Shown piece after piece: positions 7,637-42,550 of a DNA stretch of 62,681 nt (its first letter is position 1; every line of letters begins with the position of its first letter). The translations under genes were made by a program, and so were the position numbers. Under the pieces are notes generated by a model. The model was not told where the DNA came from. It did not search any database and saw only the letters and a list, made by a program, of their open reading frames with translations. The stretch is from an uncultured Anaerolineaceae bacterium (GTDB lineage: Bacteria > Chloroflexota > Anaerolineae > Anaerolineales > E44-bin32), in NCBI GenBank assembly GCA_964513155.1, contig CAZEMA010000003.1, positions 1 through 62,681 of the forward strand. The letters are read 5' to 3'.

Positions 7637-8812
7637 ATGTTCAACAAGAAGACGATTCGAGACGTTGACCTGAAAGGCCGTCGGGCGCTGGTGCGCGTCG
7701 ACTTCAATGTTCCTCTCAAAGAGGGGAAGGTCAAGGACGACACCCGCATCCGGGCCGCCCTGCCGACGATCCAATACCTGATCGAGCACGGCGCGGCTGT
7801 CATCCTGTGCTCCCATCTGGGTCGGCCAAAGGACAAGCCTGAGCCTGAGTTCACCCTCAAACCGGTCGCGACCCGGTTGTCGGAGCTCCTCAAGCGGCCC
7901 GTAATCTTCTGCCTTGTCACGGTTGGACCCGAGGCACAAAAGGCGGCCAAGGCGCTCAAGCCGGGCGAGGTCCTGCTTCTCGAGAACACGCGGTTTCAGA
8001 AGGAGGAGACCGCCAACGACGCGGCATTCGCCGCCAAGCTGGCGGCTCTGGGCGATCTATTCGTCAACGATGCCTTCGGCTCGGCTCACCGCGCCCACGC
8101 CTCGACGGAGGGCGTGGCCCATCACCTGCCGGCCGTGGCCGGCTTCCTGATGGAAAAGGAGCTGACCTACCTGGGCAAGGCGCTGGCCTCTCCCGAGCGG
8201 CCCTTCGTGGCCATCCTCGGCGGGGCCAAGATCTCCGACAAGATTGGCGTCGTCGAGAACCTGTTGGGCAAGGCTGACAAGCTGCTGATCGGCGGTGGCA
8301 TGGCCAATACCTTCCTGGCGGCCAAGGGTCTTGCCATGGGTGACTCGCTCGTCGAGGCCGAGGCGTTGCCCACCGCAAGCGACCTGCTCAGGCGCAGCGG
8401 TGACCGCATGCTCCTGCCGACCGACGTCGTCATCGCCGACGCCTTCGACGCCGGCGCCCACCACAGAGTCGCGGCCGTGGATGCCATCCCCGCGGGCTGG
8501 CGGGCGCTCGATATTGGGCCCAAGACGGTCGAAACTTTCACGAAGGCATTGAAGGGCGCCAAGCTGGTCGTGTGGAACGGCCCGATGGGTGTGTTCGAGT
8601 TCCCGGCCTTCGCCGCCGGCACCAAGGCGCTTGCCAAGGCAGTGGCCGAATGTGGGGCAACCTCGATCGTTGGTGGCGGCGATTCGGCTTCGGCCGTGCA
8701 GGATGCAGGCGTGGCCGATCGGATCAGCCACATCTCGACCGGCGGCGGGGCCTCACTCGAGTTCCTGGAAGGCAAGACCCTGCCGGGCGTGGCAGCCCTG
8801 CTCGACAGGTAA
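7637..8812 (+). CDS. pgk: Phosphoglycerate kinase
   Basis: [17 protein letters not shown]-like and GGGDSA motifs. 391 aa. Confidence 0.95.
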
Positions 8813-8825
8813 GGCACGGCAAGCA

Positions 8826-8844
8826 GAGGCCGGCACCCGGCCTC
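8826..8844 (+). terminator. Hairpin downstream of pgk
   Basis: GAGGCCGG / CAC / CCGGCCTC, 14 nt after the pgk stop. Confidence 0.4.
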
Positions 8845-9077
8845 CAGAACCCTCGGCATTTCTCCCGGCCGACGGACGCGGCCCCCTCCGGGGAGTCGAG
8901 CCCGTCGGCCGGATGTCCGCTGCCACATGTGAGCGCCTCGCTCTATGGTCCGCCTCGGATCGACCTCAGCCGTCAGAGAGCCTCCGGTGGGCACGTGAAG
9001 AACAGAAAGGGAACGCCCCAGCGGGCATTGCCCGACAGGTCCGCGCCTACAATCTGCTAACCACGACAGGAGGCCTG

Positions 9078-9107
9078 TTGCTGGGTTCACGCCTCCGGTC
9101 CTATAAT
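9078..9107 (+). promoter_or_regulatory. Putative sigma70-type promoter TTGCTG-N18-TATAAT
   Basis: -35 at 9078-9083 and -10 at 9102-9107, upstream of the small ORF at 9153. Confidence 0.4.
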
Positions 9108-9152
9108 GAGCCGTTGAGGGGATGCCATTTGCCCCGGAAGGAGACATCAGCG

Positions 9153-15654: not shown

Positions 15655-15782
15655 CTAGCAGGGTGATGAAAAGTCGCCTTGCCCGGAGAAGAAAACCGCA
15701 TAAGTAGTGGTCGGGGCGAAGCCCCAACCACCACAGGTATGAATTCCTTCCACCAAGCAGGGCTTTCTCATCACACTCCTAG
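15655..15782. mobile_element. MITE-like element, copy A (128 bp, CTAG at both ends, terminal inverted repeats, central GC hairpin)
   Basis: CTAGCAGGGTGATGAAAAG...central GTGGTCGGGGC-GAA-GCCCCAACCACCAC...CTCATCACACTCCTAG. By eye it is very similar (roughly 80-85% of positions) to the reverse complement of copy B (40238-40364). Confidence 0.65.
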
Positions 15783-16111
15783 AACGAGGCGATGGCGATC
15801 TCGCGGGTGGGGAAGGCCTTGAACAGCGCGTCCAGACCGGCGATAGCGATCGACTCGGCGGCCTGCTCTGCCGGCTGTGCCAGAACCAGCTCACCGCCCA
15901 CCTGACGCACTAGCTTGAGGGTATTGACCATGACCCGCAGGCCGCTGGACGACAAGAAGTCGACGCCGGCCAGATCCAGCGCGAGGTTGTGGTGCCCCTT
16001 GTCGACAAGCCCTTTCATGGCGATGTCCAGCTCTTCAGAGGTCGTCGAGTCGATTCGTCCCCTCAGCGTGAGGATCGCAACGCGCTTGTACTCCTGGATG
16101 GAGATATCCAC
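15779..16111 (-). CDS. STAS-domain anti-sigma-factor antagonist (RsbV/SpoIIAA-like)
   Basis: The LDLAGVDFLSSSGLRVMV motif includes the phosphorylatable Ser context. 110 aa. Confidence 0.8.
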   Translation of the reverse strand: MDISIQEYKRVAILTLRGRIDSTTSEELDIAMKGLVDKGHHNLALDLAGVDFLSSSGLRVMVNTLKLVRQVGGELVLAQPAEQAAESIAIAGLDALFKAFPTREIAIASF

Positions 16112-32436: not shown

Positions 32437-32952
32437 CTACAGCATGGCGGAGAGGGCAGACAACCGCTCGGTGGACTCCGGGTCGCTGATGAGCGGGGTG
32501 CAGGCGTCGAGAGAGCGAGCCCCTTGGATGAGGCCGAAGGCGAAAGCCATGCAGGTCGCCTCGCCGCACTGCCGGCAGTTCGTGCGCGGGAGCAGCTCCC
32601 AAAGGTCGAGGGGCCGGGGGGCCCGGAGGCCGGCGGTCGCGGGAACGAGCTCCAGCCGGTGCTCCCAAGTGGCGTTGATCGCTTCCGTCAACGCCTCCAG
32701 CAGGCGCAAGCCCTCCTCGACATCGGCCACTTGGGTGATGCTCACCCGCGTGGGCTCGAGGGCGATCAGCCCTGGGCGCCTCCGGATCGTCAGGGCGCCG
32801 GTCGCCGGGTTGAAGGCGATCACGTTGGGGAGAGTCGCCAGGTAGGGCAGGACGTCAGCAAGCGAGGATGAGGGACGACCGACGACAATGATCTTGCCAG
32901 GCTCAGCCAGACAGGGGAGCGTCTTGTTAAGGGCAATGCTGTCAAGGAACAT
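32437..32952 (-). CDS. Protein with a C-terminal RnfB/CFeSP-type Fe-S cluster domain (PF04060-like)
   Basis: C-terminal LPRTNCRQCGEATCMAFAFGLIQG....C matches the LP.TNC..CG..tC.afA pattern. The N-terminal domain is unknown. Confidence 0.6.
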   Translation of the reverse strand: MFLDSIALNKTLPCLAEPGKIIVVGRPSSSLADVLPYLATLPNVIAFNPATGALTIRRRPGLIALEPTRVSITQVADVEEGLRLLEALTEAINATWEHRLELVPATAGLRAPRPLDLWELLPRTNCRQCGEATCMAFAFGLIQGARSLDACTPLISDPESTERLSALSAML

Positions 32953-33078
32953 CCGCTCGCTTCCAGCCTGCCTGGCAGGAGCGCGGCGTTGCCAGGGGCT
33001 CTCTACTTTCGGAAGAGGTCATCGCGCACTTGTTGGATGCCCGCCCCGGGCACCTTGAGCATCACCTTTCAACCTCCC

Positions 33079-33225
33079 TCCAGCAAGTCTCTTGCCTTGC
33101 CCTTGAAATGCTTCTTGAGGAACTCGAGGGCCCCTTGCGCATCCTCGTCCAGGAGGATCCGGATCAGCTCAATGGCGTCGCTCTCTTCCAGCACAAGGCT
33201 TGTGGCCTTCTTCATCTTGCATCTC
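33079..33225 (-). CDS. 48-aa hypothetical protein (not in the ORF track)
   Basis: My own translation is MKKATSLVLEESDAIELIRILLDEDAQGALEFLKKHFKGKARDLLEGG*. A GGGAG RBS lies 7 nt upstream of ATG 33225. Confidence 0.4.
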
Positions 33226-33315
33226 CCTCGCCAAAGAGGAGGCTGATGTGATGGCCGGGGTTGTCAGTGGGTGACACCCAGGGGCAGCAGCTCGCCGGGC
33301 TTTCCCCGGATGTGC

Positions 33316-33387
33316 CTAGCAGGGTGATGAAGAAACGCGTTGCCCGAAGTCTCTCCGGGAAGCAGCGCTTCTTCGTCACCCTCCTAG
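33316..33387. mobile_element. MITE-like element, copy C (72-bp internally deleted variant)
   Basis: CTAGCAGGGTGATGAAGAAACGC...GCGCTTCTTCGTCACCCTCCTAG. Both arms match copies A and B, and the central hairpin is missing. Confidence 0.6.
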
Positions 33388-33623
33388 GGGGCCTTCTTCG
33401 CTTCCGTCTTCTCGCAATCCAGACAGACGTCGGTAGCGCGGTTGGTCCAGTACTCGAGACCGCACGCAGGGCACGTGACCTGGCGCAAGTCCGACTTCCT
33501 AACCTCCGCCTTCGGCCTCACCTCGGGGGGCAAGCCGGCAAAGGGATCAGGGTTGCATGAACAAGGGCCGAGTGGTCCCTGCGCCGGAGGCACCGAGCTG
33601 GGATCCTCTTCGGCTTTCTCCAT
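33384..33623 (-). CDS. Small zinc-ribbon protein, unknown function
   Basis: ATG 33623 (MEKAEE) follows a GGAGGAGG RBS. C-terminal CPACG-x14-CLDC is a four-Cys ribbon, and there is an extra CSC. The stop TAG lies inside the CTAG end of MITE copy C. Confidence 0.5.
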   Translation of the reverse strand: MEKAEEDPSSVPPAQGPLGPCSCNPDPFAGLPPEVRPKAEVRKSDLRQVTCPACGLEYWTNRATDVCLDCEKTEAKKAP

Positions 33624-33734: not shown

Positions 33735-33950
33735 CTACTTTCGCAGGTCGGCCAGGCGTTCTTCGACGGCCTGGACCTCGGTCTTCAGCTCGCCGAGGTA
33801 CGTTTCCAGTTCGGCAACTTGCTCGGCCTTGGTCTGGTAGCGCCGCTGGAAACGGTTGTTGCGGCAGCACTCACAATCGCAGGAACAGCCACCGGAATCC
33901 TGCCCGCACGTGCACTCGTTGCCTTCACAACATCCTTTGTCGGAGCACAT
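33735..33950 (-). CDS. Cys-rich (metallothionein-like) N-terminus fused to a DUF5320-like coiled coil
   Basis: ATG 33950 follows a GGAGG RBS. MCSDKGCCEGNECTCGQDSGGCSCDCECC has 10 Cys in 29 aa. It is followed by RRYQTKAEQVAELETYLGELKTEVQAVEERLADLRK. Confidence 0.6.
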   Translation of the reverse strand: MCSDKGCCEGNECTCGQDSGGCSCDCECCRNNRFQRRYQTKAEQVAELETYLGELKTEVQAVEERLADLRK

Positions 33951-34002: not shown

Positions 34003-35106
34003 TCATCCCGCGGCCGTTGCGGGGGCACGCCTGTAGAACCGATCTTTGATCCACAGTGCCACGTACACCAGGCCAATCAGCACCGGGACCTCGATCAGAG
34101 GACCGATCACCGTGGCAAGCGCCTCCTGGGAGGCAATGCCGAAAGTCCCAACGGCCACGGCGATGGCCAGCTCGAAGTTGTTACTGGCGGCAGTGAAGGA
34201 CTGGGTGGCTGCCAGCGGATAGGAGAACCTAAAGGCAGCCGAGAGTGCGAAGGAGACCAGGAACATCAGGGCGAAGTAGACAAGCAGCGGGAGAGCGACC
34301 CGCAAGACGTCAAACGGCTGTGCCAGGATCTTGTCTCCCTGCATGGAGAACATGACTACGATCGTGAAGAGAAGGCCGATCAGCGCCGTTGGCCCCAGGC
34401 GCGGGGCGAAGCGGCTATCATACCATTCGGCGCCCTTACGCCGCAGCAAGATGAAGCGGGTGAGGATGCCTGCCGCGAGGGGGATGCCGAGGAAGATCAG
34501 AACGCTCTTGGCGATGTCCCACATCGAGATGTCGACTACGGTTCCCTGGCCACCAAACCAGCCAGGCAGAATCCGCAAGTAGAAGTACGCCAGCGGGCTG
34601 TACATCAGGATCTGGAACACGGAGTTGAGGGCCACCAGCACTGCGCAATACTCACTGTCGCCCCCAGCGAGCATGTTCCAGATCAGGACCATGGCGATAC
34701 ACCGCGCCAGGCCGACGATGATCAGCCCCGTTCGAAAGGCCGGCATGTCGGGGAGGAAGAGCCAGGCGAGTCCGAACATGATCGCCGGCCCTATGATCCA
34801 GTTCAGAACCAGCGAAACGCTGAACTGGCGGACAGCCCCGGCGATCTTCCCAAGCTCCTCATACTTCACCTTCGCCAAGACAGGATACATCATCCACAAC
34901 AGCCCCAGGGCGATCGGGAGAGACACGGTGCCGATGCTCAGGGCGTTGAAGACATCTTTGATGCCGGGAATGAGGTAACCCAGGCCAATGCCCGAGACCA
35001 TTGCCAGGATGATCCACAGCGGCAGGAAGCGATCCAGAAGAGAAAGCCTGCCAACGATGCTCGCGCTCCCCCTTGGGTGCGTTGGAGCGGACTTGGCGGT
35101 CTCCAT
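34003..35106 (-). CDS. acr3: Arsenite/antimonite efflux permease, ACR3 family
   Basis: LSLLDRFLPLWIILAM..G.GLGY..P......SIGTVSLPIALGLLWMMYP.LAKVKYEELG is typical of ACR3. About 10 TM helices. Confidence 0.9.
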   Translation of the reverse strand: METAKSAPTHPRGSASIVGRLSLLDRFLPLWIILAMVSGIGLGYLIPGIKDVFNALSIGTVSLPIALGLLWMMYPVLAKVKYEELGKIAGAVRQFSVSLVLNWIIGPAIMFGLAWLFLPDMPAFRTGLIIVGLARCIAMVLIWNMLAGGDSEYCAVLVALNSVFQILMYSPLAYFYLRILPGWFGGQGTVVDISMWDIAKSVLIFLGIPLAAGILTRFILLRRKGAEWYDSRFAPRLGPTALIGLLFTIVVMFSMQGDKILAQPFDVLRVALPLLVYFALMFLVSFALSAAFRFSYPLAATQSFTAASNNFELAIAVAVGTFGIASQEALATVIGPLIEVPVLIGLVYVALWIKDRFYRRAPATAAG

Positions 35107-35107
35107 G

Positions 35108-35359
35108 TCAGGCGGCCTCCAGGGCATCGGCGATCCATGTAATCACCTCGGCTTCGCTCGGGATGCGGCCGGCGCAAACCAGCTTCTCATTGATGACCAG
35201 ACCCGGCGTGGCCAGGATGGGATACTCCAGGATCTTCGCCCGCTCCGTGACCTTGACGATCTGGGCCTGTGCGCCCAGGCTGGCTACGGCAGCGATGGCG
35301 GCTTGCTCGACCCTCTTGCAGTTCTCGCAGCCGGGCCCAAGGACCTTGATGCTCAGCAT
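35108..35359 (-). CDS. Thioredoxin-fold protein, redox-active disulfide protein 2 / MTH895-like
   Basis: 83 aa. KVLGPGCENC has a CxxC motif, and TPGLVINEKLV is present. Confidence 0.8.
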   Translation of the reverse strand: MLSIKVLGPGCENCKRVEQAAIAAVASLGAQAQIVKVTERAKILEYPILATPGLVINEKLVCAGRIPSEAEVITWIADALEAA

Positions 35360-35820
35360 GGGGCAGTCTCCTTCTCAATCGTGATCGTGGGTTCGATCAA
35401 GACTTCAGACTTGACCGAGTTGGCGACCAGGCTGTACTTCTGGGCGGCCTGCAACGCCCGCCGGGCTCGGGCTTCGACCTCGGCGGGGGCTTCCTCTCCA
35501 GCCGCGAGGCGGATGACCGGCCACAGCCGGAGGTGGGTGAAGGTCTCCGTACGATCCAGCTCAATACGCTTTGTCCCTTCCGCTCGGCATTCGTAGGCGA
35601 GCAGCTTCAAGCGGAAGCGCTCGGCCGCCCACAGGAACATCATCATGATGCAGGTGTTGGCGGCCGCCACGAAGGCGTCCTCCGGCGTCAGCACGCCGGA
35701 ATGTCCCTGGGCGTCAGGCGGCGCGGAGAAGTCCATCTCTGGTCCGTTGCCCATGTCGATCCGGCCCCAGTGTTCCCCCTTCCAGGTGACGGTCGTGTGA
35801 TACGTCGCCGTCCGGCTCAC
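35353..35820 (-). CDS. OsmC/Ohr-family protein
   Basis: Size and the pattern ...PEDAFVAAANTCIMM...LLAYEC.AEG... fit OsmC. The GTG start overlaps the upstream stop (GTGA 35817-35820). Confidence 0.75.
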   Translation of the reverse strand: MSRTATYHTTVTWKGEHWGRIDMGNGPEMDFSAPPDAQGHSGVLTPEDAFVAAANTCIMMMFLWAAERFRLKLLAYECRAEGTKRIELDRTETFTHLRLWPVIRLAAGEEAPAEVEARARRALQAAQKYSLVANSVKSEVLIEPTITIEKETAPC

Positions 35821-36551
35821 AGGCCCGTCCCCTCAGCCTTGCAGAAGGCTGCGTACTCGCGAAGCAGAGCCGAGGCGTAAGCTTCCTCGGCATCCGCCGG
35901 AATCGGGTTGTAGATACGGACGGTCTCCAGCAGCTGCGTTGTCGAGACCTCATCCGGTCCCTTGCCGCCCTCCTTGAGCTGTTGGAAGACGAGCGGGAGA
36001 GCGATCAGCGTGACCGGCTGTCCATCGATCATCACTTGCTGAACCGGAATCCCCGAGCCGCACGAGCAGGTGGCCTGAGCTTCTACCGAGGGGGTGGCTG
36101 CGAGGGGTGCGGATGGCACAGCCTCGTCGAGGTCATCGCCCGGGCGGCCGAGCAGCTCGTCAACCCAGGTTGCCACCTGGTCGGCGGTGAGATCCACGGC
36201 CGACATGCCCGCGGCGTTCAGGCGGCGGAGTCCTTGGGGTTGAGGCAGGCCATTCTCGGCGACGACCCGGCTGACCACCAGGTTGGCTGAGAGTTTGCCG
36301 GAGTACATCTCGGTCGCACGGGCGGCGCAGCGCACTTCGCAGCCATCGACGGCGATGGTCGGGTAGAAGCGGGCAAAGGCCCGATCCCCCTGGCCGCCGG
36401 CCAGGAACAGGGGAAGGCAGATGGTGACGGTCTCCCCGGGGCGGAGCTGCTCGAGGACCTTCAGCGCCGCCAGTCGGGTCACAGTGCCTTCCGGCAACTC
36501 CTCGCCCGAGCAAGCCACGATGCCGACCTTCTTCTTCGGCAGATTAGGCAT
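35817..36551 (-). CDS. DGC-domain (putative zinc-binding) protein with an extra C-terminal domain of unknown function
   Basis: VGIVACSGEE...ICLPLFLAGG...TIAVDGCEVRCA has the DGC motif. The C-terminal ~90 aa begin with CSCGSG. ATG 36551 follows a GGAGGGAG RBS. Confidence 0.6.
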   Translation of the reverse strand: MPNLPKKKVGIVACSGEELPEGTVTRLAALKVLEQLRPGETVTICLPLFLAGGQGDRAFARFYPTIAVDGCEVRCAARATEMYSGKLSANLVVSRVVAENGLPQPQGLRRLNAAGMSAVDLTADQVATWVDELLGRPGDDLDEAVPSAPLAATPSVEAQATCSCGSGIPVQQVMIDGQPVTLIALPLVFQQLKEGGKGPDEVSTTQLLETVRIYNPIPADAEEAYASALLREYAAFCKAEGTGL

Positions 36552-36885
36552 GGGGAGCTCCCTCCTCCTTTGCGCCGAGGGCAGCATCCAGTCCCGCGAG
36601 GAATGCCGTGGCCTCAACGAGAATGTCATCGCCCTCTAGGTAACGCGCCAATAGGGAGCGCGCATCCTCCAGCCGCTTGCGGTCGACCTCCCAGGCGGAG
36701 GCATGGTCATCCGTTTGCGCCGCTTTGACCGTCAGCCATTCGTACGCCTTTGTTGAGCGGGGGCTTGGGAATAGGCGCGTGCAGTTGCGAAGATACTGTG
36801 CCAATTCCCTCAGCGTCTCCGGTGTCATACCTATCCCGGTACCCAGTGACGTGCACTGGACGTCGTCCTTCGGGATCTCGCTCAT
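36544..36885 (-). CDS. Hypothetical protein, 113 aa
   Basis: ATG 36885 follows a GGAAGGAG RBS and overlaps the upstream stop (ATGA). I recognise no domain. Confidence 0.5.
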   Translation of the reverse strand: MSEIPKDDVQCTSLGTGIGMTPETLRELAQYLRNCTRLFPSPRSTKAYEWLTVKAAQTDDHASAWEVDRKRLEDARSLLARYLEGDDILVEATAFLAGLDAALGAKEEGAPHA

Positions 36886-37319
36886 GGCTTCTCCTTCCCG
36901 ACAGGACATCGGGACGATGTTGCAGCGAGGGTGTCCACGGTTGCGCCGATCTCCTGGGCCAAAGCCCAAGAGAGCTTCTTCCCCCCCTCGTTTAGTTCGG
37001 CGATGCCCTGCGGCTTGAACTGACGATACCGCCGGAAGACGTCGAGCACGGCGTAGGCCTGCGCGACCTGGGCTCCGCTTTCCTGGACCATCTTCGTGGC
37101 GCAGGCCAGCTGGCAGCCGTCGATCGTGATCACTGGGTGGGAGGCTACCGTCTCGCAAGCCTCGGGGTCGCCCAGGACGAGGCGCGAGAGGGCGACGAGT
37201 TGCGTTTGCTCGGGCCGCACCAACTCGGTCACGTCGTAGGCCGCTTCGCGACTGACACTGCCGTAGCTCTTGCCAATCCCGCTGCAGGGGACGATGACCA
37301 CCTTCCTCTCCGTGGTCAT
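36882..37319 (-). CDS. DGC-domain (putative zinc-binding) protein
   Basis: VVIVPCSGIGK...ITIDGCQLACA. The ATG overlaps the gcvH-like stop (ATGA 37316-37319). Confidence 0.6.
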   Translation of the reverse strand: MTTERKVVIVPCSGIGKSYGSVSREAAYDVTELVRPEQTQLVALSRLVLGDPEACETVASHPVITIDGCQLACATKMVQESGAQVAQAYAVLDVFRRYRQFKPQGIAELNEGGKKLSWALAQEIGATVDTLAATSSRCPVGKEKP

Positions 37320-37765
37320 TCTCTTCTTGCCTCCTCCTCGGCGTCGTGTCTCATCTGGACGAAGTAGGTGTCGGGGTCCTGCAGAGCGCTCCGATCCGAC
37401 GGCCAATCGTCGGCGATCAGCACCGCCAGCCAGCCCTGCCCATAGGGATCCTGGTTGATCGCCTCGGGCGCGCTGGAGAGCGCCGGGTTGATCTCGGCCA
37501 CAACGCCGGAGACAGGCGAGGCCAAGCTGACATTGACCTTGATGGTCTCAATCGTTGCCAGGTCATCTCCTCTGGCTACGTGGGTGCCCATGAGTTTGAC
37601 CTCGGCGAAGGCGACGTCCCCACTGCGTTGCTGCAGGAAGTCGGAGAGGCCGATTCGCACGCGGTTCCCCTCGGCCAAAGCCCAGACCCCCTCCCGGCTG
37701 TATACGCGATCGGTGGCCACTCTGAACGTGAACTTGTCAACGGTTGTCTCGAGATACTCCACCAT
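37316..37765 (-). CDS. Glycine-cleavage H-protein-like (lipoyl/biotinyl-carrier fold) protein
   Basis: REGVWA..EGN.VRIGLSDFLQQ..GDVAFAEV...G..V..GD.LATIETIKVNVSLASPVSGVV.EINPAL...PEAINQDPYGQGWL. The Lys at the lipoylation position is retained. Confidence 0.75.
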   Translation of the reverse strand: MVEYLETTVDKFTFRVATDRVYSREGVWALAEGNRVRIGLSDFLQQRSGDVAFAEVKLMGTHVARGDDLATIETIKVNVSLASPVSGVVAEINPALSSAPEAINQDPYGQGWLAVLIADDWPSDRSALQDPDTYFVQMRHDAEEEARRE

Positions 37766-37774
37766 CGCGGGCTC

Positions 37775-38146
37775 CTATCGTCGGGTTGGCTGAGGCTCAA
37801 CCCGCTCCTCGGACAACTCACATCGCGGGCACCCGCAGCCGTCGCGCCCGGGCCCCGGGAGCGGCCGCGAGGGTATCCCTGTGATCCCGCGCAGCGCCTC
37901 CAGGACGGCCAGCACCTCTCGGCTGACCAGCCGGTGGTAGATGAAGGTGCCCACCCGCCGTTCGCTCACAAGGCCGGCAGCTTTGAGCACAGCCAGCTGC
38001 TGCGAGACGTAGGCCTGACGAAGGCCGAGCCTCGCCTCCAGGTGGCAGACACAAGACTCCTCCTGGCCCAACGCCTCGGCGATCATCAACCGAACGGGGT
38101 GCGCCAATGCCCGCAGGATGCGGGCTTCATCCTTGTAAGCATCCAT
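37775..38146 (-). CDS. arsR: ArsR/SmtB-family metalloregulator
   Basis: ILRALAHPVRL.I...L...ESCVCHL (compare the classical ELCVCDL As(III) site), wHTH, plus a C-terminal GCGCPRC. Start at MDAYK (38146). The ORF-track extension runs into the tRNA. Confidence 0.8.
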   Translation of the reverse strand: MDAYKDEARILRALAHPVRLMIAEALGQEESCVCHLEARLGLRQAYVSQQLAVLKAAGLVSERRVGTFIYHRLVSREVLAVLEALRGITGIPSRPLPGPGRDGCGCPRCELSEERVEPQPTRR

Positions 38147-38155
38147 CGTCCACCT

Positions 38156-38179
38156 ATGCAAAAGTCTGCATGTATTGTA
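38156..38179 (-). promoter_or_regulatory. Candidate arsR promoter/operator: TACAAT -10 plus palindrome ATGCA-N6-TGCAT
   Basis: -10 at 38174-38179 (minus strand). The palindrome at 38156-38171 covers the predicted +1, 10 nt upstream of the arsR ATG. Confidence 0.4.
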
Positions 38180-38321: not shown

Positions 38322-38395
38322 TGGCTGGGGGTCGAGGATTCGAACCTCGGCATACGGATCCAGAGTCCGCTGTCCTACCGCTAGACGAACCCCCA
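38322..38395 (-). tRNA. tRNA-Gln (anticodon CUG), CCA encoded
   Basis: Hand-folded: UGGGGGU acceptor, D arm GUCU/AGCGGUA/GGAC, anticodon arm GCGGA-CUCUGGA-UCCGU, T arm CGAGG-UUCGAAU-CCUCG, ACCCCCA-G-CCA. 74 nt. Confidence 0.9.
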
Positions 38396-38450: not shown

Positions 38451-38478
38451 CTGGACACCCGTGCCCGCGGGCGGGATG

Positions 38479-38571
38479 CTCGCCCCGCCGTCCTCGGCGG
38501 GGCGAGGAGAGACTTCGGAAGTCGGCGGTAGGTCGGCGGGCAGCTCGCCCCGGCGAGGACGCCGGGGCGAG
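38479..38571. repeat. Two inverted copies of the 28-bp GC palindrome CTCGCCCCG(G/C)CGTCCTCG(C/G)CGGGGCGAG
   Basis: Copies at 38479-38506 and 38544-38571 (reverse orientation). A third copy is at 53695-53720. Confidence 0.6.
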
Positions 38572-38641
38572 CGAAGGGGGGAGGCGATACGCCTCCGTGG
38601 GGGCTCTGGCCAGATCGGCGGCAGGACCGGCGCGTACTGCA

Positions 38642-40213: not shown

Positions 40214-40237
40214 CGGGTACCTCAAACCAGGGAATGT

Positions 40238-40364
40238 CTAGGAGTTTGATGAAGAAACCCTGCTTCGTGGAAAGAATTCGTATATGTGGTGGTTGGGGCG
40301 AAGCCCCAACCACCACATATACGGTTCTCTTCTCCGGCAAGGCGGTTTTCCATCACCCTGCTAG
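40238..40364. mobile_element. MITE-like element, copy B (127 bp)
   Basis: CTAGGAGTTTGATGAAGAAACC...CGTATATGTGGTGGTTGGGGC-GAA-GCCCCAACCACCACATATACG...TTCCATCACCCTGCTAG. The 21-bp perfect central stem spans 40279-40323. Confidence 0.65.
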
Positions 40365-41746: not shown

Positions 41747-42550
41747 TCATCCGTCTCCCGGTCGCACCAGGCGAGTCAGGCGCCCGAAGAAACCATCCTT
41801 GGCCTCGAGATCCTCAAAGGGGACGGTCTCGCCATTCAGACGCCGTGCGATGTTGCGGAAGGCCTTGCCAGCCCGGCTGCGATCGTCGAGCACCGCCGGA
41901 TTGCCGCGATTAGAGGCCAGCAGGACGGTCTCGTCCTCGGGCACCACGCCGATCAACTCGATCGCCAGCACATCCAGGATGTCCTCGGTGCTCAGCATGT
42001 CGCCGCGCTTGACCAGCTCGGGCTTGAAGCGGTTCACCAGCAACTTGCCCGGCCCCTTCTCTTCAGCTTCAATCAAGCCGATGATGCGGTCGGCGTCCCG
42101 CACCGAGGAGACCTCCGGGTTGGTGACGATGACGATCAGATCGGCGGGGGCGACGGCGTTGCGGAAGCCGCGCTCGATCCCGGCGGGCGAGTCGATCAGG
42201 ACCCAGTCGAAGTCCGGGCGGAGATCATCCGCCAGGCGGATCATGTCCTGGGGAGAGACGGCCGTCTTGTCCCGGGTCTGGGCGGCGGGGATGAGGTAAA
42301 GGTCGTTCTGGCGCTTGTCCTTGATCAGCGCCTGCCGCAGCCGGCAGCGCCCTTCGACGATGTCCACCAGGTCATAGACGATGCGGTTCTCCAGGCCCAT
42401 GACGACGTCGAGGTTGCGCAGGCCGATGTCGGCGTCGATGCAGACCACCTTCAACCCCGACGACGCCAAGGCGACGCCGAGATTGGCGGTGGCCGTTGTC
42501 TTGCCCACGCCGCCCTTACCGGATGTGATCGTTGCGACCTTGGCAGTCAT
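41747..42550 (-). CDS. minD: Septum site-determining ATPase MinD
   Basis: Deviant Walker A SGKGGVGKTT and a C-terminal amphipathic tail. Confidence 0.9.
   Translation of the reverse strand: MTAKVATITSGKGGVGKTTATANLGVALASSGLKVVCIDADIGLRNLDVVMGLENRIVYDLVDIVEGRCRLRQALIKDKRQNDLYLIPAAQTRDKTAVSPQDMIRLADDLRPDFDWVLIDSPAGIERGFRNAVAPADLIVIVTNPEVSSVRDADRIIGLIEAEEKGPGKLLVNRFKPELVKRGDMLSTEDILDVLAIELIGVVPEDETVLLASNRGNPAVLDDRSRAGKAFRNIARRLNGETVPFEDLEAKDGFFGRLTRLVRPGDG

Follow-up and report, generated by a model that had tools for sequence, protein, structure and literature searches.

A conserved gene module pairing a GcvH-like lipoyl-carrier paralogue with DGC and OsmC-like proteins under ArsR in Chloroflexota and other phyla

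The window analysed here is a stretch of 62,681 nucleotides (nt) of contig CAZEMA010000003.1 (GenBank assembly GCA_964513155.1), from an uncultured Anaerolineaceae bacterium, and it carries at positions 34003-38179 an ArsR-headed operon that includes the arsenite permease ACR3. Judging from gene content across related loci, the conserved unit of this operon is a translationally coupled core of four genes, encoding a GcvH-like protein, two proteins of the DGC family and an OsmC-like protein, accompanied by a thioredoxin (Trx)-like protein and ArsR; ACR3 is a frequent add-on. We propose, with somewhat less than even confidence, that the operon works as an ArsR-repressed, lipoyl-driven thiol relay that repairs thiols or provides redox defence under arsenic stress, ACR3 being a separate exporter. 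The individual parts, the coupling of lipoyl groups to OsmC enzymes and operons that combine ArsR with ACR3 are already known; for the constant cassette and its control by ArsR, we found no description in the literature.

Gene content and junctions of the operon

The minus strand between 33300 and 38800 was read directly, together with the list of open reading frames (ORFs). Eight genes follow one another on it:

37775-38146, minus strand: arsR, ArsR/SmtB repressor, 123 amino acids (aa) (HTH_5 and NF033788)
37316-37765, minus strand: GcvH-like lipoyl-carrier paralogue, 149 aa (PF01597)
36882-37319, minus strand: DGC1, single-domain DGC protein, 145 aa (PF08859)
36544-36885, minus strand: 113-aa ORF (ORF list; no family match)
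35817-36551, minus strand: DGC2, two-domain DGC protein, 244 aa (PF08859 on residues 11-96 only)
35353-35820, minus strand: OsmC-like protein, 155 aa, GTG start (PF02566)
35108-35359, minus strand: CxxC Trx-like protein, 83 aa, MTH895/ArsE family (PF13192 and TIGR00412)
34003-35106, minus strand: ACR3 arsenite efflux permease, 367 aa, N-terminus METAKS (TIGR00832)

This order had been given in an initial annotation made from the sequence, and both the strand reading and the ORF list confirm it. The six junction coordinates of that annotation are likewise exact. Read on the minus strand, the GcvH-like and DGC1 genes meet in an ATGA (37316-37319), as do DGC1 and the 113-aa ORF (36882-36885); the 113-aa ORF overlaps DGC2 by 8 nt (ATGCCTAA, 36544-36551), DGC2 and the OsmC-like gene share a GTGA (35817-35820), and the OsmC-like and Trx-like genes overlap by 7 nt (ATGCTGA, 35353-35359). 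A 1-nt gap, the single C at 35107, separates the Trx-like stop codon from ACR3. Profile hidden Markov model searches of Pfam and NCBIfam agree with every family that had been named.

Conservation of the module across genomes

A DGC2 profile scan of one genome per species found relatives in at least 270 species. We examined 83 related loci, made up of the best 80 DGC2 genome matches and three loci fetched by exact look-up. Neighbours were counted in the 46 well-flanked loci, which have at least 5 kb on both sides, and 'nearby' means within about 8 kb of the module, the distance over which presence and absence were read; these counts come from crude ORF calling, clustering by tblastn and blastp, and one annotated representative per cluster. 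The best 80 loci belong mostly to Chloroflexota (Anaerolineae, Caldilineae, Thermoflexales and Promineifilaceae), and the rest include some Terriglobia, Verrucomicrobiota, Lentisphaerae and Omnitrophota. The initial annotation had named a neighbourhood unconserved elsewhere as grounds for giving up its proposal; the synteny check across the related loci shows that the neighbourhood is conserved well outside this genome.

The genes for the GcvH-like protein, DGC1, DGC2 and the OsmC-like protein stand in identical order in every related locus in which tblastn with the window proteins detected them. The GcvH-like and DGC1 genes overlap by 4 nt in 55 of 75 loci, DGC1 and DGC2 by 8 nt in 70 of 83, and DGC2 and the OsmC-like gene by 4 nt in 61 of 75, with the spacing from the OsmC-like to the Trx-like gene varying across loci. 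Because the same overlaps recur in other species, translational coupling of the core goes beyond chance. DGC1 and DGC2 also occur as natural fusions of about 379 aa, as at 8001-9140 of related locus L003 (P0009) and in loci L007, L013, L037, L048 and L063. By Rosetta-stone reasoning, such fusions in several genomes suggest that DGC1 and DGC2 interact physically and work as a pair. Overlapping junctions are common in compact bacterial genomes, and the operon could on that account be chance packing with no functional unit behind it; this reading is already contradicted by the same gene order and overlap lengths in about 80 species of several phyla, together with the fusions, and we regard it as extremely improbable.

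Among the 46 well-flanked loci, the neighbours within about 8 kb are distributed as follows:

Core and near-constant neighbours: OsmC-like protein, 46; GcvH-like protein, 45; Trx-like protein, 44 (96%); ArsR, 42 (91%)
Arsenic resistance (ars) neighbours: ACR3, 18 (39%); thioredoxin-type ArsC, 13 (28%); ArsM, 4; ArsD, 4; ArsA, 3; ArsP, 3
Fe-S-domain protein (homologue of the product of 32437-32952): 15

In 26 of the 46 loci (57%), one or more dedicated ars genes (ACR3, ArsC, ArsM, ArsP, ArsD or ArsA) lie nearby. The operon was initially presented as one unit, and the parts of it that hold up are the GcvH-like protein, DGC1, DGC2, the OsmC-like protein, the Trx-like protein and ArsR; the 113-aa ORF and a constant ACR3 do not. 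With ACR3 nearby in only 18 of the 46 loci, delivery to ACR3, which had been proposed as the purpose of the system, cannot be its core function.

Several other genes recur beside the module. An AhpD-like protein, related to the 'arsenosugar-associated peroxidase-like' family, is found in 15 loci, a TauE-like permease in 13, a cysteine-desulfurase-family gene in six and CcdA in six. Fifteen loci also encode a radical-SAM/SPASM 'metalloenzyme maturase'-like protein of about 416 aa (for example L039 7860-9110, L020 11190-12443 and L048 5385-6650), which scores 307 bits on TIGR04317, 'tungsten cofactor oxidoreductase maturase' (cutoff 380). In 13 of these loci its gene borders the core, either just ahead of the GcvH-like gene or right behind the OsmC-like one; the window has no copy. 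Its product may modify one of the core proteins post-translationally.

A GcvH-like lipoyl-carrier paralogue encoded with an OsmC-like protein

The GcvH-like protein has the GCV_H fold (PF01597, 92.9 bits). A Lys at the lipoylation position had been noted in it; this residue, K76 in the motif IETIKV, proves invariant in 75 orthologues. The protein falls under both GcvH equivalog cutoffs (TIGR00527, 83.7 against 115.85 bits; NF002270, 99.1 against 117 bits), and an inspection by eye, made without a specific probe, recognised neither gcvT nor gcvP in the window or in the conserved neighbour clusters. On these two grounds, the sequence evidence marks it as a paralogue that serves a purpose other than that of the glycine-cleavage H protein.

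In 12 loci the next gene upstream of the GcvH-like one encodes a dihydrolipoyl dehydrogenase (Lpd; TIGR01350, 497 bits, cutoff 408.8), as at L033 162-1589, L025 7560-9128 and L072 2598-4028. Ohr/OsmC enzymes have their disulfide reduced by protein-bound lipoyl groups (Cussiol 2010, as cited in PMC5384416), and, by the account given in the same article, the hydrogenosomal OsmC of Trichomonas vaginalis has as its partners L and H proteins that belong to an incomplete glycine-cleavage system (Nyvltova 2016, cited in PMC5384416). The lipoyl dependence of OsmC/Ohr enzymes, taken together with the Lpd adjacency, is the strongest mechanistic clue to the module, and it was not part of the initial annotation.

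The OsmC-like protein (PF02566, 42.9 bits, cutoff 27.5) is the slowest-evolving member of the module, with a median identity of 78% compared with 61-66% for the GcvH-like and DGC proteins and 42% for ArsR. Its residues C57 and C78 are conserved in all 74 sequences, and C57 aligns with the helix Cys of the structures 2onf and 2d7v, the position of the peroxidatic Cys in OsmC/Ohr proteins. These two entries, Ta0195 (2onf) and VCA0330 (2d7v), are unannotated structural-genomics proteins and are its only relatives in the PDB. The Trx-like protein (PF13192, 80.1 bits; TIGR00412 'MTH895/ArsE', 87 bits, cutoff 62) belongs to the Trx-fold proteins with an N-terminal CxxC, and its C11-x-x-C14 is 100% conserved. 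The origin of the name 'ArsE' could not be traced in the literature.

The DGC proteins

DGC1 and DGC2 score 54.5 and 54.6 bits on PF08859 (cutoff 27) and share the CSG...DGC-x3-C signature of the family; NCBIfam has no model for either. The Cys triad of DGC1 (C12, C69 and C73) is 100% conserved in 84 sequences. DGC2 has four invariant Cys residues (C14, C71, C75 and C162) and two more, C45 and C164, that are at least 90% conserved. The C-terminal domain of DGC2 carries a CSCGSGIP motif and matches no Pfam family; candidate relationships to Trx-like, ArsD, DF-family, GcvH-like and OsmC-like proteins were rejected at hhalign probabilities of at most 2.3%. DGC2 has more than 5,900 DGC-family matches in the protein collection, the best 120 of which are full length at 63-99% identity, and no tblastn match among the PLSDB plasmids.

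The AlphaFold2 model of DGC2 (mean predicted local distance difference test score 78.7) consists of an N-terminal alpha/beta three-layer domain and a C-terminal domain of a hairpin plus helices. The DGC Cys residues in the model follow strands 1, 2 and 3 and should therefore cluster at one edge of the sheet, an arrangement that would fit a metal, metalloid or redox site; the sites might carry electrons, Zn or Fe-S, or As(III). Foldseek comparison of the model with the PDB returned only generic alpha/beta proteins (SIS domains and lumazine synthase; E >=7.5e-3, template-modelling score about 0.3), and a DGC2 profile search against PDB sequences returned no match. On nomenclature, a preprint (10.1101/2022.10.17.512643) calls PF08859 a 'diguanylate cyclase (DGC) motif'; the Pfam name refers to an Asp-Gly-Cys motif, unrelated to GGDEF cyclases.

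ArsR and its putative operator

ArsR scores 38.3 bits on HTH_5 and 82.1 bits on NF033788 (cutoff 55). It carries C32-V-C34 on helix alpha3, within EESCVCHLEA, and a C-terminal C104-x-C106-x-x-C109, within DGCGCPRCE; across 36 orthologues C34, C104, C106 and C109 are 100% conserved and C32 is 94% conserved. The ESCVCHL and GCGCPRC motifs of ArsR and the IETIKV of the GcvH-like protein, all reported initially, are present in the translations. ESCVCHL occupies the alpha3 position of R773-type repressors and would form a thiolate As(III) site in this winged-helix ArsR/SmtB repressor.

The proposed operator lies immediately upstream:

38156-38171, minus strand: palindrome ATGCAGACTTTTGCAT, putative ArsR operator, 10 nt upstream of the arsR ATG

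The palindrome comes just after a -10-like hexamer, TACAAT, at 38174-38179, and has the form ATGCA-N6-TGCAT. Allowing up to two mismatches, AT(G/T)CA-N6-TG(C/A)AT precedes arsR in 21 of 43 related loci, where chance would give about 0.07 per region, and about 19 of the 21 matches are clean ATTCA/ATGCA palindromes. The operator proposed from the window alone thus gains support from related loci.

An alternative is that the module responds to another soft metal (Cd, Pb, Hg or Sb) or to reactive sulfur, which a lipoate-binding protein and Cys carriers would handle in the manner of sHdr-LbpA with DsrE/TusA, and that the ars genes beside it are secondary. The alpha3 C-V-C motif is typical of As/Sb and Cd/Pb sensors and also occurs in CadC, and the nearest PDB relatives of ArsR by sequence are SqrR and BigR. 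A persulfide sensor of the SqrR/BigR type is nevertheless weakened as a candidate: those repressors sense through one Cys in alpha2 and another in alpha5, and in the alignments ArsR has Glu24 at what we take to be the position of the alpha2 Cys; it also reaches 64.9 bits on the BigR model NF040642, below the cutoff of 155. The recurrence of TauE-like exporters, cysteine-desulfurase-family genes and CcdA would also suit a sulfur-related role, as would the 20 loci that lack a dedicated ars gene nearby, and LbpA shows that GcvH-like proteins can take part in sulfur chemistry (PMC6067878, PMC11094781). Against this stand the absence of Hdr-like genes among the conserved neighbours of the related loci and the ars association itself, since ACR3, ArsC, ArsM, ArsD/A or ArsP in 57% of loci is far above chance for genes that occur once or twice per genome. 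Moreover, an ArsR-ArsP-ArsE(PF13192)-DGC(PF08859) operon of Pseudodesulfovibrio mercurii ND132 is induced by arsenic (preprint 10.1101/2022.10.17.512643). Overall, we consider a primary role outside arsenic decidedly improbable.

A proposed lipoyl-driven relay and an arsenic-capture alternative

Three observations lead us to favour a lipoyl-driven relay under ArsR: coupled genes encode the H-like and OsmC-like proteins within a single unit, 12 loci have Lpd next to it, and 15 have an AhpD-like protein. The scheme, in which we infer lipoylation, the direction of electron flow, the order of transfer, the role of the DGC proteins and the terminal substrate, would run as follows. A thiophilic metalloid, most likely As(III), would release ArsR from the ATGCA-N6-TGCAT operator, and the core proteins would then be produced in fixed ratios. 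The K76 lipoyl arm of the H-like protein would be reduced by Lpd and NADH, with the dehydrogenase encoded in the cluster in some species and presumably supplied by the housekeeping enzyme in the window's host. The dihydrolipoyl arm would act as dithiol donor to the 2-Cys OsmC-like enzyme, and DGC1 (Cys3) and DGC2 (Cys4(+2)), probably paired, would serve with the Trx-like protein as relay intermediates or partners. Most likely, the relay would reduce hydroperoxides or oxidised or arsenic-blocked thiols, and ACR3 would separately export As(III).

Several observations weigh against such a relay: (i) Supply and recycling of the lipoyl arm. The window has no tblastn match to the Lpd sequences of related loci, Lpd is in the cluster in only 12 of the 83 loci, and neither a lipoate ligase nor a lipoate synthase turned up around the module in a crude motif search of 2,887 neighbour ORFs. 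(ii) The active site of the OsmC-like protein. The canonical resolving Cys of the C-terminal helix (the 'C-P/F-x-S' position) is missing, with Ser130 (KYSLVANS) aligned to the Cys of 2onf (KYCFIS) and 2d7v (ENCFIANS); by eye, a Glu is kept in TPEDAF and the conserved FSAPPDAQGH loop has no Arg, so that the catalytic Arg appears to be lacking as well. Peroxidase activity of the protein is accordingly not assured. The T. vaginalis OsmC is described as lacking the catalytic Arg and Glu (PMC5384416). (iii) The DGC fold. Profile and Foldseek searches against the PDB give it no functional clue. (iv) The ars linkage. In 20 of the 46 loci, a dedicated ars gene is missing from the 8 kb around the module. 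(v) The chemistry of arsenite. As(III) poisons dihydrolipoyl groups, and a lipoyl-dependent system working under arsenite would be paradoxical unless arsenic binding itself were the point.

This last consideration keeps alive a reading of the module as an arsenic-capture device. Here, along the lines of the initial annotation, the dihydrolipoyl arm (S2) and the Cys3 and Cys4 sets of the DGC proteins would bind As(III) or methyl-As(III) directly, shield the lipoyl enzymes of the cell as a decoy or sink, and pass the metalloid on to an exporter such as ACR3 or ArsP. As(III) binds vicinal dithiols such as dihydrolipoamide, and S3 is the usual As(III) ligand set in ArsR, ArsD and ArsM; DGC1 has exactly three invariant Cys residues. 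Capture would also suit the presence of DGC and ArsE-type proteins beside two unrelated permeases (ACR3 here, ArsP in locus L004 and in ND132) and of a Cys-rich 71-aa protein encoded after ACR3. A pure binding relay leaves unexplained why the OsmC-like enzyme is the most conserved member (78%), and the Lpd adjacency favours redox turnover over stoichiometric binding. The two permeases are moreover seldom near (ACR3 in 18 and ArsP in 3 of the 46 loci), and in some loci ArsD/ArsA chaperone genes coexist with the module. We therefore judge direct capture and hand-off unlikely.

ACR3 and the question of an arsenate reductase

ACR3 is a clear member of its family (TIGR00832 equivalog, 441.9 bits, cutoff 282.8) and thus provides the arsenite permease of an ars operon. 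No operon product matches an arsenate reductase in Pfam or NCBIfam, and in this respect the proposal that none of them belongs to a known reductase family stands. DGC in particular was considered as a disguised low-molecular-weight (LMW) phosphatase ArsC and rejected at an hhalign probability of 0.1-0.3%; over comparisons with LMW-phosphatase ArsC or ArsD the values are 0.1-0.6%. Queries from related loci for LMW-phosphatase ArsC, ArsD, ArsM and ArsP gave no tblastn match in the window at E <=1e-3, and an E. coli ArsC query gave only noise. The ArsA query gave two weak P-loop matches at 42350-42529, next to minE, which we read as MinD. The earlier statement that the window holds no other ars gene is accordingly good for the ArsC, ArsD, ArsM, ArsP and ArsA probes, with ArsH, ArsI and ArsJ left unprobed.

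The lack of a reductase had been taken as a hallmark of the system. In 19 related loci, thioredoxin-type (LMW-phosphatase) ArsC adjoins the module, including 16 of the roughly 28 loci with an ACR3-like gene (hand count). Because of this, the missing reductase is, as far as gene content tells, a local trait of the window and does not define the module.

These counts also bear on the idea that the module itself reduces pentavalent arsenicals in a lipoyl-dependent manner, with As(V), MAs(V) and possibly Sb(V) or thioarsenate as substrates. The oxyanion would be attacked by a Cys of either the OsmC-like or a DGC protein, and a second Cys would resolve the adduct to a disulfide. For the reduction of this disulfide, the lipoyl-H-like protein and Lpd would take the place of thioredoxin. 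Such a scheme would give each component a defined role, with Lpd as the link to NADH, and the window and most related loci have no ArsC nearby. In the model, the DGC Cys layout, with one Cys after strand 1 plus the DGC-x3-C pair, resembles the Cys10/82/89 relay of pI258 ArsC. The coexistence of thioredoxin-type ArsC with the module in 19 loci, many of them with ACR3, speaks against the scheme, as does the negligible hhalign probability. The C-X5-R oxyanion loop is not present in the DGC sequence, and LMW phosphatases are absent from the top 50 Foldseek matches of the DGC2 model. A reductase of this kind therefore seems quite unlikely.

A wider formulation spans capture and reduction: the ArsR-induced lipoyl-H protein would use its dithiol arm to capture As(III) or thio-arsenic, or to reduce pentavalent arsenicals, and would hand the arsenic to the Cys3 and Cys4 sites of DGC1-DGC2, with the OsmC-like protein and Lpd recycling the arm. 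We hold it to be doubtful. If it were true, arsenite's classical target would be a detoxification cofactor in a widespread, hitherto unknown lipoyl-based arsenic pathway of anaerobic Chloroflexota and other phyla, and the DGC (PF08859) family would have its first function.

Relation to known systems

The lipoyl-driven relay that we favour has its closest counterpart in lipoyl-dependent Ohr/OsmC systems such as the L, H and OsmC proteins of T. vaginalis, which likewise join an OsmC-family Cys enzyme to a lipoylated carrier with Lpd as the link to NADH. In the module, too, carrier and OsmC-like protein are encoded together, in a single coupled operon, with Lpd adjacent in 12 loci. It differs in that two DGC genes always lie between those for the carrier and the OsmC-like protein, that Cys57 and Cys78 are not the canonical peroxidatic and resolving pair, and that the whole is under an ArsR-type repressor and often linked to ars genes. 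A four-step NADH relay of Lpd, DlaT (SucB), AhpD and AhpC, with AhpD as the lipoyl-linked adaptor, was reportedly described in Mycobacterium tuberculosis by Bryk et al. in 2002. It resembles our scheme as a multi-step passage from NADH through Lpd and lipoyl to a Cys adaptor and a Cys peroxidase, and AhpD-like proteins accompany the module in 15 related loci; in the module, however, the carrier is a dedicated H-like protein instead of an E2, the candidate adaptors belong to the DGC family and an OsmC-like protein takes the terminal place of the peroxiredoxin.

Like canonical ars operons, the locus combines a CVC-bearing ArsR/SmtB protein and a putative palindromic operator with a bona fide ACR3. 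It differs in that no ArsC, ArsD/A or ArsM was found in the window and that six of the eight genes belong to families without an assigned arsenic function. Redox-support genes in ars operons have precedent, for example the thioredoxin support of ArsTX. The acetoin dehydrogenase system, as further background, is lipoyl-dependent.

The ND132 operon (10.1101/2022.10.17.512643) is alike in placing a Trx_3 'ArsE' and a DGC gene under ArsR beside an arsenical permease, with induction by arsenic; it has neither a GcvH-like nor an OsmC-like gene, only one DGC gene, and ArsP as permease instead of ACR3. The same preprint reports that the acetoin dehydrogenase system is also induced by arsenic. As for sHdr-LbpA (PMC6067878, PMC11094781), the likeness is a GcvH-like lipoate-binding protein outside glycine cleavage that is encoded together with small Cys carriers, whereas the neighbours of our module include ars genes instead of Hdr-like subunits, DsrE/TusA and dedicated lipoate ligases.

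Subscription-only literature aside, we found no published description of a GcvH-like-DGC-DGC-OsmC-like cassette under ArsR control. Among the papers found, none describes the four-gene core, in keeping with the initial suggestion that the system could be undescribed, and only the ND132 preprint mentions a DGC gene in connection with arsenic.

Implications for arsenic biology

Few detoxification systems are charted as well as arsenic resistance, and the textbook target of arsenite is the lipoyl enzymes. A module with its own lipoyl carrier and recurrent gene overlaps, with ArsR nearby in about 90% of loci and relatives in at least 270 species, for which no mention was found, marks a gap in the catalogue of ars genes. 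Under our interpretation, a testable role would become available for the DGC family, which comprises thousands of proteins and has neither a structure nor a function, and likewise for a 2-Cys OsmC-like subfamily represented only by structural-genomics entries and for the 'ArsE' Trx-like proteins. It would also extend the roles of lipoyl proteins outside central metabolism, which now comprise Ohr/OsmC, AhpD/AhpC and sHdr-LbpA. The module may show how anaerobes use the lipoyl dithiol in their arsenic response, and it would be of use in predicting how arsenic behaves in the anoxic settings that are rich in Anaerolineae, namely aquifers, peat and sludge.

The 113-aa ORF

The 113-aa ORF had been counted as a relay member, a role that falls away: it is missing from all 83 related loci, where DGC1 and DGC2 overlap directly by 8 nt. 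Its product matches no Pfam or NCBIfam family and has no conserved Cys, and its AlphaFold2 model, a three-helix bundle with residues 1-17 disordered, found no match in Foldseek. The homologues are about 90 aa long, share 46-63% identity and start near M20 of the window protein, so that the true start may be M20 at 36828. In other Anaerolineae their genes have unrelated surroundings and immediately precede DinB_2- or DUF1706/MDMPI_N-type genes (L087 6134-7709, L088 2986-4561 and L085 7001-8067). This separate setting, together with the absence from the related loci, indicates at sequence level that the ORF is a lineage-specific insertion between DGC1 and DGC2 and not part of the module. The homologues and the DinB_2/DUF1706-type genes hint at a separate pair of a small protein and a thiol metalloenzyme. 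In two loci the homologues adjoin a gene for MerB (organomercurial lyase).

Downstream genes

Three genes lie beyond ACR3:

33735-33950, minus strand: Cys-rich 71-aa protein, probable downstream operon member (translation; homologues in related loci)
33384-33623, minus strand: zinc-ribbon 79-aa protein (CPAC...CLDC), possible operon member (homologues; weak NF049953 match)
32437-32952, minus strand: 171-aa protein whose C-terminal part is an Fe-S cluster domain of the CFeSP/RnfB N-terminal type (NCBIfam on residues 113-168)

Residues 1-29 of the 71-aa protein (MCSDKGCCEGNECTCGQDSGGCSCDCECC) include 12 Cys, a coiled coil comes next, and Pfam returns weak coiled-coil matches only. Homologues of 68-84% identity follow ACR3 or Trx-like genes in six loci (L006, L011, L019, L039, L049 and L054), and the protein may be a metallothionein-like metalloid binder. 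Zinc-ribbon homologues of 46-64% identity were found in 7 of the 83 related loci, and homologues of the Fe-S protein in 21 of the 83, with that in L002 carrying PF04060. Since the 71-aa, zinc-ribbon and Fe-S genes recur beside the module, the operon probably continues past ACR3 and is longer than 34003-38179, so that the limit originally set at ACR3 would have to be moved. A non-coding gap of 431 nt (32953-33383), which holds a repeat fragment, separates the Fe-S gene from the zinc-ribbon gene.

Genomic setting

A 101-nt palindromic repeat at 40237-40337 has a copy at 15683-15783; its arms are 83% complementary around a GGGGCGAAGCCCC core, and a 32-nt fragment of its end lies at 33316-33347, downstream of the zinc-ribbon gene. 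In sequence it looks like a miniature inverted-repeat transposable element (MITE) or a repetitive extragenic palindromic (REP) element that does not tightly flank the ars locus. The initial description of a locus between MITE-like insertions is thus right about the repeat and its fragment and wrong about close flanking, as no tight flanking repeats were found around the locus. GC content is flat across it, and the flanking genes, identified by eye from translated N-termini, are housekeeping-like (prfB, ftsY, gltX, rodA, minE and mreBCD). Horizontal transfer found no sign in its favour on these three grounds, and the accessory character once ascribed to the locus is weak given the flat GC content and housekeeping-like flanks.

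The tRNA gene reported beside the locus is present:

38322-38395, minus strand: tRNA-Gln(CTG), same strand as the ars genes

Between gltX and this tRNA gene, 38470-38572 holds two tandem GC-rich, hairpin-forming copies with 29-nt arms that are 93% complementary; they form a 37-nt direct repeat, 65 nt apart. The sequence just upstream of tRNA-Gln contains a sigma-70-like promoter match (38450-38422, minus strand).

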